A stretch of DNA of 38,370 nucleotides from a virus, in IMG/VR virus record IMGVR_UViG_3300048599_000037, positions 1-38,370 of that record. One strand, given 5' to 3'. The number at the start of each line of letters is the position of its first letter. Position 1 is the stretch's first letter. Both the position numbers and the translations under genes were made by a program. The notes beneath the pieces were generated by a model. The model made no database searches and was not told the DNA's origin. It saw only the letters and a program-made list of their open reading frames with translations. Below, piece by piece: positions 3,204 through 38,370 of the stretch.

Positions 3204-3805
3204 TGAAATACATTTTAATTTTAGCTTTATTATTTACAGGCTGTGTGACTACAGATGTAAAACCAGACTCTCCTAAAGTTCCAGAAGTTGTTGCGCCTGT
3301 TGAACAACCTTCAAAACCAATTGAAAGCGTTTCATTGCTTGCGTGGGGCGATCAAAAACCTTCATGGGATGTGGCTCTATACTCAGAAATCGCAAAGCAT
3401 GATTGGTCTTCTGTGAAGGTTCCTTGTAAGCAATATTCGAAAGAGCATTGTGTTGGTCAATTAATTTCTATCATGGCGAAATATGAAAGCTCATTTAAAC
3501 CAGAGGTAACTTATAAGGAAGGATTTAATGATTCAAAAGGAAAACCAGTTATCAGTCGTGGTCTGTTACAGTTGTCAATCGAGTCAGCTAATCAGAAAGC
3601 TTATGGATGTGAAATCGAGCAAGCCTCTGACTTACATGACCCTGCTATTAACCTTAGATGCGCAGTTAGAATCGTGGCATTCCAAGCTAAGAAATCAAAA
3701 ACACTTATGGGAGAACCAAAGTTGGGATGCGCAGCTTACTGGTCAGTTTGTAGAAAAAGCTCAGGATCAAACGCGAAGATCTTAAAATACATGGAGCAAT
3801 TCTAA
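3203..3805 (+). CDS. Lipoprotein with a family-1 lytic transglycosylase (SLT) domain
   Basis: N-terminus MKYILILALLFTGC is a signal peptide plus lipobox. YESSFKPE...SRGLLQLS matches the SLT catalytic E-S-x-F ... G-L-x-Q motifs. Confidence 0.75.
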   Translation: MKYILILALLFTGCVTTDVKPDSPKVPEVVAPVEQPSKPIESVSLLAWGDQKPSWDVALYSEIAKHDWSSVKVPCKQYSKEHCVGQLISIMAKYESSFKPEVTYKEGFNDSKGKPVISRGLLQLSIESANQKAYGCEIEQASDLHDPAINLRCAVRIVAFQAKKSKTLMGEPKLGCAAYWSVCRKSSGSNAKILKYMEQF

Positions 3806-4488
3806 TGGGGTATTTAAAAAGTATTTTCGCAAAGAAAGTTCCTTACACTGGCGGCTTAAACGCAATGACTTCAGTGTTGAAAGAATTTCTTGATGTCTTT
3901 AATGACGATCATGTTCTTTCTGATTTTCAAGACAACGACGATATTCCACAGATTTTAAATGATCTTCAGCCAAGCAGCACAACTTATTTAATCGGTGATA
4001 ACTACGATAGAACTTGTTGTAAAATGAAGGATGTTGAAAAGGTCACACGTTTGATTTATGCAGCGAAAGCAAAGCATGGTCATCGTTATGTATTTGGTAA
4101 TCATGAAGCCATGGGATCACATCCTAGCGACAACTACGTTGTTCACGAATTCAAATCAGGAAAGCGTGTTCTATTAACTCACGGCGACCTGGAGTCTGAT
4201 CCGGTTAAATGGATGAAATACCGTGAAAAAGAAGGCGGCGCAGGTTTAGTAAAATTATGGCGCACTAAAATATTCGATCACTTGGATATCGTTAAAGGGA
4301 ATGTTTTGTATAAAAACTTACCGGATGGATTCCTTGAGAGAGCAGCTGCAAAAGCTAAATCTTACGATTGTACTTATTATGTTTGCGGCCACTTCCACGT
4401 TGAAACAGAGAGACGCTACAAAGTAGGTGACATCACTGTAATTGTTTTACCTGCGCACAATAAAAACCGCTCTAAGGTTTGGTTCTAG
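3805..4488 (+). CDS. Calcineurin-like metallophosphoesterase (protein phosphatase or nucleotide phosphodiesterase class)
   Basis: Ordered motifs DDH ... GDNYDR ... GNHE ... THGD ... GHFH match the D-x-H / GD-x-x-DR / GNHE / H / GH-x-H signature of metallophosphoesterases. Confidence 0.75.
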   Translation: MGYLKSIFAKKVPYTGGLNAMTSVLKEFLDVFNDDHVLSDFQDNDDIPQILNDLQPSSTTYLIGDNYDRTCCKMKDVEKVTRLIYAAKAKHGHRYVFGNHEAMGSHPSDNYVVHEFKSGKRVLLTHGDLESDPVKWMKYREKEGGAGLVKLWRTKIFDHLDIVKGNVLYKNLPDGFLERAAAKAKSYDCTYYVCGHFHVETERRYKVGDITVIVLPAHNKNRSKVWF

Positions 4489-8070: not shown

Positions 8071-8323
8071 AGCAATAATATCCGGCCATCGATGATAGCG
8101 GAATAGATTGAGCATACACAAATTTGTAAGATCTAACTCCGCATTGTGGCTTTGGTTTAATTCTTTCAGTGTTGTAAATGTAACCTTTTCCATTCTTAAA
8201 ATCTAAAAGGGTGGGATGATAATCTTCAATTGGATATGATCCGCATCCTGCAATCAGCAAGCATAAGAAAACTATTACTAAAATTGCAAGACCCCAGTCT
8301 ATTAATTCTTCTACTAAGCGCAT
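7949..8323 (-). CDS. Lipoprotein of unknown function (candidate o-spanin-like or superinfection-exclusion protein)
   Basis: A hydrophobic N-terminus ends in the lipobox LLIAGC. It is the last gene of the leftward operon. Its 3' 122 nt overlap the 3' end of terL on the opposite strand. Confidence 0.55.
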   Translation of the reverse strand: MRLVEELIDWGLAILVIVFLCLLIAGCGSYPIEDYHPTLLDFKNGKGYIYNTERIKPKPQCGVRSYKFVYAQSIPLSSMAGYYCFKNEEVTQALRDFDEAEREDCERKLQESKTHSLQTGPSHP

Positions 8324-8910
8324 AATGCATTCCTCTCTAGTTGTTCCTGAAATAAATGTCTCCAGGTTTTATTGTGTTTAATGTCTGCAATTGTTTGTCG
8401 ATGAACTTTGTAGTCATTCGCTATGTCTACCAGTCTATCTCCGCGATTAATTCTAAATTTTATCTGGATGACCTCTGAACTTATAAGTTTAGCAAAACCT
8501 TGATCTTCGCCCTTAGCAGTATTCAATCTACCTAGTTTCTTTGCATGAAGAATGTTTTGTTGTTGGGTAACAATCTCCAGATTTTCAAGGCTGTTATTCG
8601 CTCTGTTTGCATCAATGTGGTTTGTGCATTTTCCAAAAAAATCAGCTTCTCTGTTGAAAAACAGAATAACTGCATGATGCGCTAGAACTGTAAATTTAAG
8701 ATCATCGATTACAAAAACATGGCAAACATATCCTTGCGAGTTCTTGCTTTGAGATAATCTGCGATTTACAGGCTTGTTCATAGCATCATTTCTAGAATGA
8801 TTATGAGAGTATACAAATCCGTCTTTTGTGCAGCTATATAAGCCAAGCTCAAAAGCTTTAATGATTGATTTTCTGTGTTTAAGGTCTTTGACCTTTTTTG
8901 GGTGTGCCAT
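8314..8910 (-). CDS. HNH homing endonuclease with C-terminal HTH
   Basis: AHHAVILFF...CTNHIDANRANNSLENLEIVTQQQN is an HNH (H-N-H/N) core. The C-terminal IANDYKVHRQTIADIKHNKTWRHL is the HTH typical of phage homing HNH enzymes. A sampled line has lower GC (about 33%). Confidence 0.8.
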   Translation of the reverse strand: MAHPKKVKDLKHRKSIIKAFELGLYSCTKDGFVYSHNHSRNDAMNKPVNRRLSQSKNSQGYVCHVFVIDDLKFTVLAHHAVILFFNREADFFGKCTNHIDANRANNSLENLEIVTQQQNILHAKKLGRLNTAKGEDQGFAKLISSEVIQIKFRINRGDRLVDIANDYKVHRQTIADIKHNKTWRHLFQEQLERNALCA

Positions 8911-31108: not shown

Positions 31109-32026
31109 TTATTCATCCTTAAACTGCGCTGTCTTTGGTGGTGTATAGTTCATGTCTTGCAGCCATTGTTCTAAGATTCTAATTTCTTGTACATTGCCTT
31201 CATTTACTTTCTCATTTGACCACATTCTCTCAACGAATTTAAAAACTTCTTCTGTGCCAATGTCTTTTAACATTTTGTTTTTATTTAATCCGATAGTTAA
31301 AACGTGATCAGAGTAGTCTACTTTCTGATTGGCTAAAGCTGCAACTTCTGGAGAAAGATCAAATCCAGATCCATTCTCAGCAATGTCATCAGATTTAGTT
31401 GGAAGACCTTGCCATGGCGTGAAACTAGTTTTTTTAAGGGTAGGGGCGGCAGTAACTTCACGCTCTGGTTGTGGAATTTCTTCAGTCGCATAGATGCCTG
31501 ACATTTCATTGGGGAAAGCTTTTCTTAAAGCCAATGCTTCAGCAACTTTCGCAATCATTAAAGCAGGCATTTTTTTCCACATATGGCCAAGATCACCAGC
31601 TTTATACTTTCCATATTTGTCATCGTACTGTTGTTTCTGAGCATATTCATCAAACATGGCCGTAGCTACTAAAGGCTCACGGAATCCTTTTTTGTAAACT
31701 CCAACACGGGCAGCTTTCGGAGTACCTTCTTTAATCCAAACGTCAGACCAATTTCCTTCTTTGTCGCACCACTCAGCTTTTGTTTGGCCTTCGTAAGCTC
31801 CTGAGCGTTCTGCGATTAAGCGAAGGCCATCAATAGACGCCATGATGTTAATTTTACCTTGGCCCGCTGGGATTGCGTAAATTTGCTTTGTGATCGGATC
31901 TAAGCCAGTACGAGCACACTGAATCAGAAAGAAATCTAAATCCGCCCCAACAAGTTTAAATTGGTTCTGGATTACTTGCGCATTCTTGTGAAGGTACTGT
32001 TCTGTTACTGCGATTTCGTTTTTCAT
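31109..32026 (-). CDS. recT: RecT-family single-strand annealing recombinase with a ~120-aa C-terminal extension
   Basis: GLDPITKQIYAIP...IMASIDGLRLIAERSGAYEG...VGVYKKGF...MWKKMPALMIAKVAEALALRKAFP is the RecT core. I prefer the start at ATG 32026 (MKNEIAV, SD AAGGAAA) to 32065. Confidence 0.85.
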   Translation of the reverse strand: MKNEIAVTEQYLHKNAQVIQNQFKLVGADLDFFLIQCARTGLDPITKQIYAIPAGQGKINIMASIDGLRLIAERSGAYEGQTKAEWCDKEGNWSDVWIKEGTPKAARVGVYKKGFREPLVATAMFDEYAQKQQYDDKYGKYKAGDLGHMWKKMPALMIAKVAEALALRKAFPNEMSGIYATEEIPQPEREVTAAPTLKKTSFTPWQGLPTKSDDIAENGSGFDLSPEVAALANQKVDYSDHVLTIGLNKNKMLKDIGTEEVFKFVERMWSNEKVNEGNVQEIRILEQWLQDMNYTPPKTAQFKDE

Positions 32027-32183
32027 TTTTACGTTTTCCTTTTCTTTTTTCTTTTTCAGTTGCAACGGCCAATCTTAGGGCATCATTGCAAGTTTTAGAT
32101 TTATCAATTTTATAAGTTTTGCATTCATCAAGTAAGTCATTTCTGGCTCTGATTGTGAATGGCCTGCTTTTGTTAGTAGCCAT
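31956..32183 (-). CDS. Ribbon-helix-helix (Arc/CopG-like) DNA-binding protein
   Basis: SD AGGAG before ATG 32183. RPFTIRARNDLLDECKTY...CNDALRLAV fits a beta-strand plus two helices. The basic tail overlaps the recT start through an A/G-rich tract. Confidence 0.55.
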   Translation of the reverse strand: MATNKSRPFTIRARNDLLDECKTYKIDKSKTCNDALRLAVATEKEKRKGKRKNEKRNRSNRTVPSQECASNPEPI

Positions 32184-33126: not shown

Positions 33127-33190
33127 ACAGTTCTAATCCAATTGTAATACACCATCAACATATATTTTAATTGTATTACACCGCGTTAAT
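33127..33190 (-). promoter_or_regulatory. Leftward promoter-operator cassette with two TGTA-W-TACA sites
   Basis: Sites at 33143-33151 (tgtaataca) and 33172-33180 (tgtattaca). The minus strand reads AATTAAAATA-TATGTTGAT-GGTGTATTACA-ATTGGATTAGAAC, with possible -35 TTGATG, a 17-nt spacer and TAGAAC. About 27 of 32 positions are shared with 35220-35251. Confidence 0.5.
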
Positions 33191-35086: not shown

Positions 35087-35183
35087 TTTTACCGATTACA
35101 TAAACTTGGTTAGAACCAGATACAGCCATCATTGTAGGTAGACCGGCTTGAGCAATTTTATTTTCTAAAGACATTGTTTTCAT
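34956..35183 (-). CDS. Hypothetical first early protein
   Basis: I prefer ATG 35183 (MKTMSLENK..., SD AAGGAA) to the track start at 35240, which would run through the operator. Confidence 0.5.
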   Translation of the reverse strand: MKTMSLENKIAQAGLPTMMAVSGSNQVYVIGKNGKTGSYFFQEGKAVCVSTFRNGQEGESHTFHKSIKSFIQVLV

Positions 35184-35199
35184 TTGTTCGATTCCTTTT

Positions 35200-35262
35200 C
35201 TTGAAACCAAACTAACAAAGTGTAATACACCTGACAACAACTATTTTAATTTTATTTATTAT
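35200..35262 (-). promoter_or_regulatory. Leftward early promoter-operator cassette
   Basis: Perfect palindrome GTGTA-A-TACAC at 35220-35230. The minus strand reads AATTAAAATA-GTTGTTGTCA-GGTGTATTACA-CTTTGTTAGTTT, with possible -35 TTGTCA, a 17-nt spacer and TAGTTT. It is a paralogous copy of the cassette at 33127-33190. Confidence 0.5.
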
Positions 35263-35267
35263 TTGTG

Positions 35268-35282
35268 ATGCACTATGTGCAT
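35268..35282. promoter_or_regulatory. 15-bp palindrome ATGCAC-TAT-GTGCAT
   Basis: Read directly. It lies just upstream of the leftward promoter cassette. Confidence 0.5.
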
Positions 35283-35293
35283 AAGTGCACTTA

Positions 35294-35310
35294 ATTGGCT
35301 GTTCATTAAA
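35294..35310. repeat. Direct repeat ATTGGCTGTTCATTAAA (copy 1)
   Basis: Matches 35429-35445 (ATTGGCTGTTTCATAAA). A partial copy, CCGGCTGTTTAAC, lies at 35324-35336. Confidence 0.7.
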
Positions 35311-35370
35311 AAGATTGATAAATCCGGCTGTTTAACTTTTCCCATCGGCTTGCAATTGCGAAGCAATTCA

Positions 35371-35417
35371 AACGAGGTCCAAGCGGTAGCGCGGCAGGGA
35401 TGCAAGACATTCTCGTT
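35371..35417. other. GC-rich stem-loop (aacgag ... ctcgtt closing stem)
   Basis: A 6-bp closing stem encloses gtccaagcggtagcgcggcagggatgcaagacatt. It is locally far more GC-rich than its flanks and sits between the direct repeats. Confidence 0.45.
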
Positions 35418-35428
35418 AATTTAATCAG

Positions 35429-35445
35429 ATTGGCTGTTTCATAAA
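35429..35445. repeat. Direct repeat ATTGGCTGTTTCATAAA (copy 2)
   Basis: See 35294-35310. The copies start 135 bp apart. Confidence 0.7.
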
Positions 35446-35693
35446 CTAGATATAGGAATCCCCTACCTGTAGGGAAAACAGTTTTAAAAAATACTTTTGA
35501 ACCCGCTTACTTCTTAGATTCAGCAAGGTTTATATGTCTAATAAGGTTAGTGGCCTTTCGCTTGGAGCTAATTCCTGTCGCTTTCCAAGTGCTCCGGTCG
35601 GTAGATAAGGGGGAGCCCTGTCAGTTGATCCCAAAACGGGGCACAACTATTTTTTAACGATCCACTAAACTTAATAAACTTTTAAAGAAGTAA

Positions 35694-35722
35694 TTGACCT
35701 GAAACGGTCTATGACATAATAA
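35694..35722 (+). promoter_or_regulatory. Sigma70-like rightward promoter
   Basis: TTGACC at 35694-35699, then CATAAT at 35715-35720 (15-nt spacer) or TAATAA at 35717-35722 (17-nt spacer). Confidence 0.5.
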
Positions 35723-35728
35723 TGAGTC

Positions 35729-35783
35729 TATCAGTAATCATTATTAAATGCTTGGAGATGACCTCTTCAGGCATTTTCTTTAT
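35729..35783 (+). ncRNA. Predicted ~55-nt transcript or leader ending in a 13-bp hairpin and T-run (terminator/attenuator 35746-35783)
   Basis: 35746-35758 pairs with 35764-35776 (13 bp including 2 G.U, loop TGACC), followed by TCTTTAT. It lies about 20 nt downstream of the predicted start site. Confidence 0.45.
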
Positions 35784-35839
35784 CAGTTCAAACATCATCA
35801 CACGACAATCCAAATTTAAGCAATAATCATTTTTTACAG

Positions 35840-35848
35840 TGTAATACA
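35840..35848. promoter_or_regulatory. Operator-like site TGTAATACA (context AGTGTAATACAATTTT)
   Basis: Same core as 33143, 33172 and 35221. Its context matches the minus-strand reading of the 33172 site (GGTGTAATACAATTAAAA). Confidence 0.45.
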
Positions 35849-35870
35849 ATTTTACTGCGCACTTCATTTA

Positions 35871-35948
35871 CCCGCGGTCTGCAAACACTACGAGCAGCCG
35901 GCCGGACCGGTACCATGTCACTAAATAACAGATTTTTGGATCCAAAAA
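35871..35948. other. GC-rich island dense in perfect palindromes
   Basis: CCGCGG 35872-35877, CCGGCCGG 35898-35905, ACCGGT 35906-35911, GGTACC 35909-35914, and the 16-bp TTTTTGGATCCAAAAA at 35933-35948. GAGCTC and CTGCAG follow within the next 25 bp. Confidence 0.8.
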
Positions 35949-35980
35949 GGAAGAGCTCGAATTGCTGCAGCTCTTTTTGC
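35948..35980 (+). terminator. Second hairpin plus T-run in the rightward leader
   Basis: aagagct (35951-35957) pairs with agctctt (35969-35975) and is followed by TTTGCTT. It is weaker than the first hairpin (7 bp, 11-nt loop). Confidence 0.35.
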
Positions 35981-36076
35981 TTATTACCTGGACTTTTCTT
36001 GCAATTACACATATCGTCATAATTACAGATCATTTCATTGATTTAAGTCGGTTAGTTAGCCAAACTTTTATTTGAC

Positions 36077-36406
36077 ATGACAAAATGCCTCAAAACGCTT
36101 CAAAAAGAATGGTACAAAAAAATAGAAGCCCAAGGCTTCACTGACATCGAATACCCCACTGGCCAAGTAAAAAAGTTCCAAGCATCCATCCACAAAATCG
36201 AACATACCCAAAAATACTTCTCAATCGCCCAAGACTTCTTAAATAACTTCACATTCAATTCTGAATTAGATAAACAGATCTGGGCCCTACACTGCGAAGG
36301 CTGGAGCTACCGTCAAACCGCTAAAATCTTAAATATTGGAACTAACAAAACCCAATACCGAATGACTAAACTTAAAACAATCATGGAAATCTGGAGAAAA
36401 CTATAA
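36077..36406 (+). CDS. Sigma-70 region-4 / LuxR-like HTH protein (candidate activator), first gene of the rightward operon
   Basis: DKQIWALHCEGWSYRQTAKILNIGTNKTQYRMTKLKTIM resembles a region-4-type HTH. 109 aa. Confidence 0.55.
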   Translation: MTKCLKTLQKEWYKKIEAQGFTDIEYPTGQVKKFQASIHKIEHTQKYFSIAQDFLNNFTFNSELDKQIWALHCEGWSYRQTAKILNIGTNKTQYRMTKLKTIMEIWRKL

Positions 36407-37313: not shown

Positions 37314-37691
37314 ATGGCAAAAAAATCTACGCCTGTTAAGGCTGATAAGAAGCGTACAAGACCTAAGAAAACTGAATTTGAGAAATCACTAGAGCGTGTC
37401 ATTAAAATTGGCAAAGCTTCTGGTGTTCATGCTATTCAAACCACTGAATTTAAAATCTATTTTACGCCGGGTTCTGTTGTGACTACTCCCCAGCAGACGA
37501 CATCGACTAAGGGCCCGGCTCCCCTTACTGGCCAACCTTTAGAAAAACACAAAGTAACTGCCGGCGGAATCATGATCGATGGTGATGTCCCAAAAGAAGA
37601 AATCTTATCAGATGATGAATTCTTGTTTATGTCTACTCCATTCTTTCAACGTGAAAAGCCTTTAATGAATGGCGATGGGGAAAATCAATAA
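37314..37691 (+). CDS. Hypothetical protein with a basic N-terminus
   Basis: MAKKSTPVKADKKRTRPKK... No SD seen. Function unknown. Confidence 0.5.
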   Translation: MAKKSTPVKADKKRTRPKKTEFEKSLERVIKIGKASGVHAIQTTEFKIYFTPGSVVTTPQQTTSTKGPAPLTGQPLEKHKVTAGGIMIDGDVPKEEILSDDEFLFMSTPFFQREKPLMNGDGENQ

Positions 37692-38001: not shown

Positions 38002-38370
38002 ATGGATATAAATACTATGTCTCACAACGGGAAACCTCCTGAAAAGAAACAGTCAGAAAACAAATCTCGTCGTTGGTGGTTAGAGCCAAACAACAAAATC
38101 GCTGACGCTGTTATCTCAAACTTTAATATTATCTATCAAAATGATTCTGCCAGAAGATATCAATATGAAATCTCCTCACGCCTTTACGCTAATATCAATA
38201 TCGTAGGCGCTCCCACTCAAGTCGTAACCAATCAAAAGAAAACAATTAACGACCGATTAACTTACAATTTAGTTCAATCAGTAGTTGATACTTTGATGTC
38301 TAAGTCTGCGAAGAACAGACCAAAAGCAATGTTTCTAACTGAAGGTGGGGTATTCAAACAACAGCGCAAA
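38002..38370 (+). CDS. Portal protein, N-terminal part (continues at base 128 of the window through the repeat)
   Basis: ATG 38002 preceded by AAAAGGA. The frame stays open to the window end and is in frame with 50..1648. Confidence 0.7.
   Translation, partial: MDINTMSHNGKPPEKKQSENKSRRWWLEPNNKIADAVISNFNIIYQNDSARRYQYEISSRLYANINIVGAPTQVVTNQKKTINDRLTYNLVQSVVDTLMSKSAKNRPKAMFLTEGGVFKQQRK
38244..38370. repeat. Terminal direct repeat, copy 2 (identical to 1..127)
   Basis: See 1..127. Confidence 0.95.

Follow-up and report, generated by a model that had tools for sequence, protein, structure and literature searches.

A conserved non-coding gap as a putative two-way transcription control region in an uncultured podovirus-like phage and its close relatives

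We analysed the virus record IMGVR_UViG_3300048599_000037 at its full length of 38,370 nucleotides (nt; the window), and in particular the divergent gap between its leftward early operon and its rightward portal and structural operon. Comparative and statistical evidence indicates that this gap is a genuine, conserved, non-coding region that controls transcription in both directions. We propose a hub built from modules: an operator switch plus a terminated rightward leader that needs antitermination. We give this reading a probability of about 50%. There is good support for its two sequence-level pillars, a palindromic operator system and a terminated leader behind a promoter-like site. We infer the antitermination step and the role of a conserved 20-nt box that resembles the operon polarity suppressor (ops).

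Relatives were found with the portal as anchor; scans anchored on the helix-turn-helix (HTH) protein next to the gap returned almost nothing. The relatives used below are L005, L006/L007 and L053, from independent metagenomes (L006 is Logan SRR31712301, L053 is IMG/VR 3300010429), and the portals of L006 and L053 are 63-66% identical to that of the window. These closest relatives have a leftward operon, a gap at the same position (627 nt in L005, 664 nt in L006/L007, about 880 nt in L053) and a rightward operon leading to the portal. In distant relatives the gaps are shorter. The features that carry the proposed hub are the following.

35184-36076, no strand: divergent intergenic gap, 893 nt.
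33130-33181, minus strand: internal leftward promoter, TTGATG-N17-TAGAAC (33158-33130), sigma70-like, with the palindrome in its 17-nt spacer.
35209-35237, minus strand: leftward promoter P_L, TTGTCA (35237-35232), a 17-nt spacer holding GTGTAATACAC, and TAGTTT (35214-35209).
35694-35709, plus strand: TTGACCTGAAACGGTC (TTGACC.GA..CGGTC), a -35-like hexamer over the inverted repeat GACC-N6-GGTC, invariant in the window, L006 and L053.
35718-35745, plus strand: 8-bp inverted repeat AATAATGA-N12-TCATTATT over the -10-like region.
35746-35785, plus strand: predicted intrinsic terminator, a 13-bp hairpin (35746-35776) followed by TTTTCTTTAT (-15.1 kcal/mol, z score -3.6).
36016-36059, plus strand: conserved proximal block GTCATAATTACAGATCATTTCATTGA .. 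GTTAGTTAG, in which ATTACAGAT (36022) repeats ATAACAGAT (35925).
36077-36406, plus strand: first rightward gene, a 109-amino-acid sigma-region-4/LuxR-like HTH protein without a Shine-Dalgarno (SD) sequence.

The operator evidence is mainly statistical and comparative. With at most one mismatch, GTGTAATACA matches the genome 8 times against 1.9 expected (a fourfold enrichment), and none of 100 shuffles reaches 8. The sites cluster at 33142-33181 and in the gap, where the initial annotation had named GTGTAATACAC at 35220-35230 and a further copy, GTGTAATACAA, at 35838-35848 (no strand). Both are present, the second about 620 bp to the right of the copy in P_L. P_L (35237-35209) is sigma70-like and lies upstream of the first leftward gene, which is not conserved among relatives (the model of its 75-amino-acid protein has a predicted local distance difference test score, pLDDT, of 56 and is unusable). 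The internal promoter region, outside the gap, holds two copies 30 bp apart (33142-33152 and 33172-33181). L005 and L006 share the context of the palindrome, TTAAACCATA(A/G)GTGTA(A/T)TACA, and pairs 31-33 bp apart occur inside the leftward operon of L006 (2574/2607) and L053 (3254/3285). The other family loci yield a single match in 774 kb.

We read GTGTAATACAC as an operator because it is enriched, is kept in relatives and occupies the spacers of two leftward promoters. On this evidence GTGTA(A/T)TACAC is a predicted clade-specific operator system. The genetic switch suspected from the window alone thus gains support from the enrichment, the position in promoter spacers, the geometry kept in L005, L006 and L053, and the adjacent HTH gene. 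The HTH protein (36077-36406) and a GerE protein (1648-2007) are candidates for binding the operator. The model of the former has a pLDDT of 83; its C-terminal half is confident and resembles sigma region 4 and LuxR/FixJ DNA-binding domains. Its Foldseek matches are weak (none with E <= 0.001), as are its Pfam and PHROG matches, and all agree. The GerE/LuxR-type HTH regulator (plus strand) is encoded directly 3' of the portal gene, an unusual position for a regulator, and is kept by every close relative (L004-L007); it may bind motifs of the gap.

The rightward leader was studied by aligning the right half of the gap (35660-36090) with L006 and L053 (nhmmer, MAFFT). The promoter followed by a terminator-like hairpin that had been noticed in this place held up: TTGACC-N18-AATAAT precedes a G+C-containing hairpin that runs directly into a T-run at 35746-35785, the arrangement of an intrinsic terminator. 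L006 and L053 have a hairpin and T-run in the same place, with compensatory changes between the two. Upstream of it the arms of their inverted repeat read AAGTTTGA-N10-TCAAACTT instead. The layout of leader and terminator is thus alike in three genomes, which keep the two-hairpin architecture with different sequences. The first inverted repeat (35718-35745) may be a DNA operator rather than an RNA hairpin, because the predicted start falls inside it.

Further to the right, GTCAT.AT.ACAGA..ATTTCATTGA, GTTAGTTAG and the gene start ATG.CAAAATGCC are conserved with L006 and L053. The two AATTACA repeats of the initial annotation are found at 36003 and 36021; an overlapping 9-mer, ATWACAGAT, matches three times against 0.75 expected, a count that 3 of 100 shuffles reach. 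Of the 41 genes, 33 have a clear SD sequence, and the first rightward gene scores worst. Another gene of the rightward operon (37314-37691, plus strand) also has none (+0.4 kcal/mol).

In the proposed hub, a repressor would bind the operators and shut off early leftward transcription. Rightward transcription would start in the gap and stop at the terminator unless RNA polymerase is made termination-resistant. The resulting control would be late and similar to that of lambda PR'/tR'. The 20-nt box on the non-template strand would be an accessory module that pauses the polymerase and loads a NusG-family factor, and such a factor would also help to translate the first rightward gene, which has no SD sequence. 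The box and its surroundings comprise three features.

35379-35398, plus strand: conserved 20-nt box CCAAGCGGTAGCGCGGCAGG, two tandem GCGGTAG-like heptamers.
35294-35445, plus strand: unit bounded by the direct repeats ATTGGCTGTTCATTAAA and ATTGGCTGTTTCATAAA, 135 bp apart, enclosing the box.
35449-35657, plus strand: blocks common to L049 and partly to L005 and L006, namely TATAGGAAT.C.CTACC (35453-35470), GCCTT.CGCTTGG..CCAAGT (35552-35593) and GGCAC..TTTTTAAC (35632-35656), with no significant fold energy.

The box has the layout CCAA-GCGGTAG-C-GCGG(T/C)AG-G and is identical or near-identical across all loci. The window shares it with L006/L007 and with L049, an unrelated IMG/VR phage contig that has its own 700-nt gap and further spaced blocks in common with the window. 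It also occurs at 11 bacterial loci, in two microviruses, in the inovirus pMU1 and on one Peribacillus plasmid. A scan of GTDB located it in Sporolactobacillus and Neobacillus (four identical copies), adjoining UPF0236/ISLre2 transposase genes, and in Ruminococcaceae, Eikenella and Azospirillum. BLAST against annotated records placed it in non-coding regions of the two microviruses and of Eikenella pMU1, and just 3' of a primase-domain gene on the Peribacillus plasmid.

Some of these carriers deserve a description of their own. Eikenella corrodens pMU1 (L146, NC_007093) is filed as a plasmid. We regard it as the replicative form of a filamentous phage because it has zot, TspB and a rolling-circle replication initiator; with DUF2523 and an IS110-family recombinase, its gene set is that of a Neisseria-type filamentous phage. 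Neobacillus sp. SM06 (L135, L136, L138, L143) has at least four identical copies of an ISLre2/UPF0236 element with a hairpin plus box about 110 nt from the right end. Sporolactobacillus (L133, L134) and the viral contig L048 have a related insertion sequence (IS) with a hairpin plus box 5' of the transposase gene.

A hairpin of 11-23 bp stands 2-3 nt before the box in six or more independent lineages, and the stem sequences are unrelated. At seven loci the hairpin is well beyond local controls (z -3.0 to -4.9); L142 and L049 reach about -2.1, and the 11-bp hairpin of L145 is not significant (z -0.8). Two Eikenella copies have hairpins that differ by a compensatory change. In the window, the GC-rich stem-loop that had been described between the direct repeats is not a stable hairpin (-9 kcal/mol, z -0.3); the conserved box stands there instead.

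Rfam 15 has no family at threshold in the window, only sub-threshold eukaryotic small nucleolar RNA and small RNA noise in the gap, and gives no match at the box in 27 other loci. ARAGORN found no transfer RNA (tRNA) or transfer-messenger RNA in the window or at any box locus tested. The tRNA-like reading of the box was rejected; it had come from CCAAGCGGTA, which we take to resemble tRNA D-arms. A literature search for the string of the box returned nothing. Most of the 42 IMG/VR matches to a 16-mer of the box are coincidences in coding sequence. Readings as a Chi site, dif/XerCD, boxA/boxB or a site for integration host factor were considered and dropped, as they gave no testable match.

The 17-bp direct repeats noted earlier at 35294 and 35429 are real, if weakly significant, and the unit that they bound may be an inserted module. 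At other loci the box is flanked by direct repeats of unrelated sequence at a similar spacing (136 nt in L006, 135 in L144, 118/116 in L146/L142; range about 116-137 nt). The patchy distribution and the flanking repeats point to a horizontally exchanged cassette of box and flanks. Taken to its end, this would make 35311-35428 a miniature mobile or exchanged cassette without any role in phage regulation, its repeats being a target-site or junction duplication. Such an account would explain why the box is limited to the window and L006/L007 within the portal family, yet occurs in microviruses, an inovirus, plasmids and ISLre2 elements of different phyla, and why unrelated repeats recur at 135, 136, 135 and 116-118 nt. 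The four identical copies in one Neobacillus genome agree with it as well, though they ride on an IS. However, the repeats vary in length (9 to 18 nt) and several are not significant alone, no transposase or nuclease is consistently associated with the cassette, and in L144 the box has another position relative to the repeats. We consider a cassette devoid of regulatory function rather improbable; mobility itself leaves room for a function of the box.

For the accessory role of the box in the hub, the closest model is ops. A 12-mer of the box, AGCGGTAGCGCG (35382-35393), is identical to Escherichia coli ops12 (GGCGGTAGCGTG) at 10 of 12 positions and differs by G1->A and T11->C. Substitutions at C3-G8 of ops reduce or abolish the recruitment of RfaH, and all six bases of this core (C3 G4 G5 T6 A7 G8) are present in the window, L006 and L049. 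The window also keeps the pyrimidine-G of the general pause consensus. The ops element acts in the non-template strand; for rightward transcription the box is likewise on that strand, upstream of a long operon. RfaH targets are typically without ribosome-binding sites, and the first rightward gene likewise has no SD sequence. RfaH paralogs encoded by plasmids are on record with ops-like sites of their own (e.g. IncX PrfaH). We do not file the box as an ops site; by analogy it may work like one.

Several observations weigh against the proposed hub, most of them against its ops-like part. The pMU1 and Peribacillus boxes carry G5->A, a change that abolishes RfaH recruitment in E. coli. The pause-inducing TG at positions 11-12, found in all validated E. 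coli RfaH targets, is CG in the window. In L049 and in a capybara microvirus the box is antisense to the neighbouring genes. The hairpin before the box is weak in the window and in L006, and no promoter can be assigned upstream of the box. Within the portal family, the gaps of about 65 more distant relatives do not contain it, and ops-core motifs were not found as a family-wide feature. Hence the box is not needed by the family as a whole. Scans of the phage genome (Pfam, PHROGs) found no NusG_N/KOW, Q-like or other antiterminator protein. On the leader side, the -10 element for TTGACC is poor and variable, the predicted start lies inside the first inverted repeat, and promoters and terminator are predictions from sequence alone. 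The second hairpin of the initial annotation (35948-35978) is not conserved and does not stand out from shuffles (z -0.6).

We tentatively suggest, as a rather improbable extension, that hairpin plus box, N-CCA-AGCG(G/A)TAGCGCGG(C/T)AGG, is an undescribed, horizontally exchanged signal that engages a universally conserved host machine. Its carriers are podophages with double-stranded DNA, Microviridae, an inovirus, ISLre2 elements and plasmids, across Bacillota and Pseudomonadota. The machine would most plausibly be elongating RNA polymerase, engaged through a NusG-family factor; alternatively, it would be a priming enzyme on single-stranded DNA (ssDNA). In either case phages, insertion sequences and plasmids would be exchanging a portable "host-machinery handle". 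If the extension is true, ops-type control reaches far beyond RfaH and enterobacterial operons.

A structured non-coding RNA in the gap is plausible, and the part of this earlier idea that rests on the promoter-like site, the strong terminator and the conserved two-hairpin architecture stands. The part concerning the long left segment does not, for want of thermodynamic or covariation support. In its strongest form, the left half of the gap (about 35340-35785) would be a self-contained plus-strand RNA gene of about 300-450 nt, possibly processed, and the box would be a part of this RNA, serving for example to bind protein or RNA, and not a DNA signal. This fits L049, whose homologous element runs counter to every neighbouring gene and has a terminator at its end. 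Several spaced blocks are common to the window and L049, the terminator closes the unit in the window, and ISLre2 elements and Apis microvirus 27 have the box in sense orientation. The fold energies, on the other hand, are no better than those of shuffles (z -0.8, +0.1 and -1.6). No Rfam family appears even at E<5, no covariation could be established from the three sequences that can be aligned (with four, the MAFFT alignment is too poor), and there is no clear promoter upstream of 35340. We regard such an RNA gene as doubtful. One large stable RNA over 35340-35660 was also considered and rejected, as fold energy gives it no support; the left segment of 320 nt folds no better than shuffles (z -0.8). 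Among the hairpins listed for the gap the terminator hairpin is above chance, and several others are no better than shuffles.

The initial annotation had called the region ORF-poor (poor in open reading frames), and indeed no ORF from the leftward start (35183) to the rightward one (36077) exceeds 68 amino acids. It had also named conserved small proteins as the finding that would overturn its view. We compared the 25 stop-free frames of at least 20 amino acids with the gaps of L005, L006, L053 and L049 (tblastn); no frame is conserved in the relatives. The best of the 25 (35929-36072) has a 42-amino-acid match to L006 with E 1e-5, which is what a conserved protein would predict, but this frame carries stops in L006 and L053, and a control gene of 40 amino acids reaches E 1e-21. 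The matches fall in several frames and on both strands within the same nucleotide blocks, and the indels between the relatives' gaps have lengths that are not multiples of three. It is thus very improbable that small proteins explain the conservation of the gap.

The remaining features of the gap are these.

35872-35970, no strand: GC-rich palindrome island with CCGCGG, GCCGGC, CGGCCG, CGGACCG, ACCGGT, GGTACC, GGATCC, GAGCTC and CTGCAG.
35948-35983, plus strand: weak hairpin AAGAGCT..AGCTCTT followed by TTTTG, terminator-like and specific to the window.
35268-35290, no strand: 15-bp palindrome followed by GTGCAC; its RNA fold is not significant.

The island had been spotted before, and its density is exceptional: 9 GC-rich hexamer palindromes fall within 110 nt, and 300 order-3 Markov simulations gave at most 7. 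CCGCGG, CGGCCG, CGGACCG, ACCGGT, GGTACC, GGATCC, GAGCTC and CTGCAG are unique in the genome, and GCCGGC occurs once in the island and once elsewhere. Outside the island 32-45 occurrences of these hexamers are expected and one is observed; GC-rich palindromes overall are depleted only about twofold. The GGATCC lies within TTTTTGGATCCAAAAA (35933-35948). As RNA the island gives no fold signal (z +0.4), and an 18-mer from it has only chance matches in IMG/VR, in contigs of 65% GC.

Eight restriction sites, each unique in 38 kb and packed into 100 nt, look like a designed multiple cloning site, so an engineered polylinker in a contig from a laboratory vector had to be weighed. The contig, however, comes from a metagenome of the Joint Genome Institute (JGI), and non-site, phage-like sequence between the sites can be aligned with relatives. 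In L006 the homologous place reads CCGCGGCCGGC..ATAACAGA..TTGGATCC and is that genome's densest palindrome cluster. L053 retains GCCGGA..ACAGA..TTTGGATCC, of which TTTGGATCC is conserved across all three genomes. L006 and L053 thus have CCGCGGCCGGC and/or TTTGGATCC where the surrounding sequence has diverged. CCGCGG/CGGCCG/GCCGGC and GGATCC are common to the window and L006, and GGATCC also to L053. In both relatives this GGATCC is the only one in 14 kb, with GATC over-represented. The island is natural because L006 and L053, from independent metagenomes, carry its core, and we reject the polylinker as practically impossible. The comparison further indicates that the island acts at the DNA level and is functionally constrained.

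Palindrome usage is uneven in the whole window. CAGCTG, AAGCTT and CAATTG occur 31, 40 and 24 times, and GTCGAC, GCATGC, GGCGCC and CGTACG never, which suggests selective restriction avoidance. The island would then be a natural example of a functional constraint that overrides such avoidance, given that relatives keep their sole GGATCC there. It also cautions against reading every polylinker-like cluster in a metagenomic contig as vector contamination.

The gap had also been put forward as the best candidate for a replication origin. For this idea we found no specific support. In such an origin, hairpin plus box would signal priming or single-strand initiation close to AT-rich unwinding tracts. 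AT-rich tracts do exist (27-30% GC at 35160-35310 and 35640-35850), and the genome has no recognisable replication protein: the Pfam and PHROG scans found RecT only, in agreement with the earlier remark. The sole indirect hint concerns the box itself, which three ssDNA phages carry in their main non-coding region and a plasmid carries just 3' of a gene with a primase domain. A hairpin with a conserved 3' tail is what we take to be the layout of primase recognition sites (RSF1010 ssiA, G4 ori). DnaA-box-like 9-mers, however, number 33 against 46 expected, neither iterons nor tandem arrays were found, and most relatives must replicate without the box, which in one microvirus is on the non-virion strand. 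The gap's only perfect DnaA-box-like 9-mer, TTATGCACA (35276-35284, minus strand), lies within the 15-bp palindrome ATGCAC-TAT-GTGCAT (35268-35282), whose presence we confirm, and is probably coincidental. The minimum of the cumulative GC skew needs no origin because it coincides with the switch of coding strand. An origin in the gap is therefore improbable in our estimate.

The window belongs to an uncultured, tailed, podovirus-like phage whose large family, likewise uncultured, has genomes of about 38 kb. Its ends overlap by 127 nt (1-127 equals 38244-38370), and because the last 127 bases duplicate the first we treat the genome as circularly closed with 38,243 bp. The portal gene (38002 to 1648, 629 amino acids) crosses this junction and is split in the window. 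The Pfam and PHROG scans recognise a P22-type portal, a large terminase and an SU10-type adaptor among the structural proteins, and RecT, an SLT lysozyme, GNAT, the GerE-type regulator and a CcdA-like protein among the others; they found no polymerase, helicase, primase, initiator, integrase or NusG-like protein. GenBank phages gave neither a DNA-level match nor a close relative at the protein level, and exact look-ups of the proteins encoded next to the gap returned no record. The terminase is at most 28% identical to those of Pelagibacter podophages. The portal has more than 1500 relatives, mostly on contigs of 35-40 kb.

Other genes of the window and its relatives are recorded here as side observations. 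A 75-amino-acid early protein (31956-32183, minus strand) matches the CcdA antitoxin domain (PF07362, E 3.5e-5) and could have an anti-toxin or anti-defence function in the early operon. An HNH_3 endonuclease gene (8314-8910, minus strand) adjoins the terminase region, and the early operon of L005 also has an HNH_3 gene; these may be homing or packaging-associated nucleases. L005 alone has an ORF of 215 amino acids (3759-4406) with a weak DUF559 (endonuclease-like) match between gap and HTH gene. Between HTH gene and portal, L006 (4311-4490, 5444-5519) and L007 encode a CsrA-like protein (PF02599) and a tRNA-Cys, neither of which the window has. In the structural operon of relatives there are Pfam matches like Acb2/Tad1-hairpin, an anti-CBASS/anti-Thoeris sponge (L004 8079-8456, L006 11679-11918, L007 9117-9356).

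A control region made of operators and a terminator is ordinary phage biology. Here it serves as a first map of regulation for a large uncultured family with genomes of about 38 kb, over 1500 portal relatives and a terminase less than 30% identical to that of any cultured phage. New are the cross-element 20-nt box and the natural "restriction-site island".

Known systems resemble the gap to different degrees. The single-strand initiation (ssi) and single-strand origin (sso) signals of ssDNA replicons share with the box loci of microviruses, inovirus and plasmids a strong hairpin followed by a conserved single-stranded tail, and TAGCG presumably resembles the ssoA CS-6 motif. Unlike these signals, the box has carriers among DDE-type IS elements and in a double-stranded DNA phage as well, it is not in every case on the packaged strand, and no sequence match to a described ssi or sso could be verified.

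The likeness to ops/JUMPStart and RfaH comprises 10 of 12 bases, the recruitment core, the pyrimidine-G pause, the non-template strand and an SD-less first gene of a horizontally mobile operon. In contrast to ops, the conserved unit here spans 20 nt with tandem heptamers, in most cases preceded by a hairpin of 11-23 bp. It has C in place of T11, some copies carry G5->A, and its orientation is at times antisense to genes. Among its carriers are Firmicutes elements and ssDNA phages, in which one would not expect RfaH proper, and no cognate NusG paralog was found for it. LoaP offers a second comparison with NusG-family control. In the LoaP leaders of Bacillus velezensis (dfn, mln) a hairpin, a pause and intrinsic terminators stand in a long leader before a long operon, and LoaP recognises a small RNA hairpin with a UNCG tetraloop. 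Neither this hairpin nor sequence similarity was found here, but a long untranslated leader with hairpin, pause and terminator(s) ahead of a long operon is common to both.

The switch itself recalls the OL/OR operators of lambda-type phages. Here the palindrome is only 11 bp and lies inside the promoter spacer, and this genome has no recognisable integrase or lysogeny module. In both cases several copies of a short palindrome overlap divergent or serial promoters, with pairs about three helical turns apart and distant copies that could loop. In the late control of lambdoid phages, PR' is followed by a short leader RNA and tR', which is read through by Q. In contrast, no Q-like protein was found in the genome analysed here, about 290 nt including the palindrome island separate terminator and first gene, and the first genes are regulators or accessory genes rather than lysis genes. 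What the gap has in common with lambdoid late control is a promoter-like site whose -35 and -10 enclose a conserved element, and a leader of tens of nt that leads to a strong intrinsic terminator directly upstream of the structural operon.

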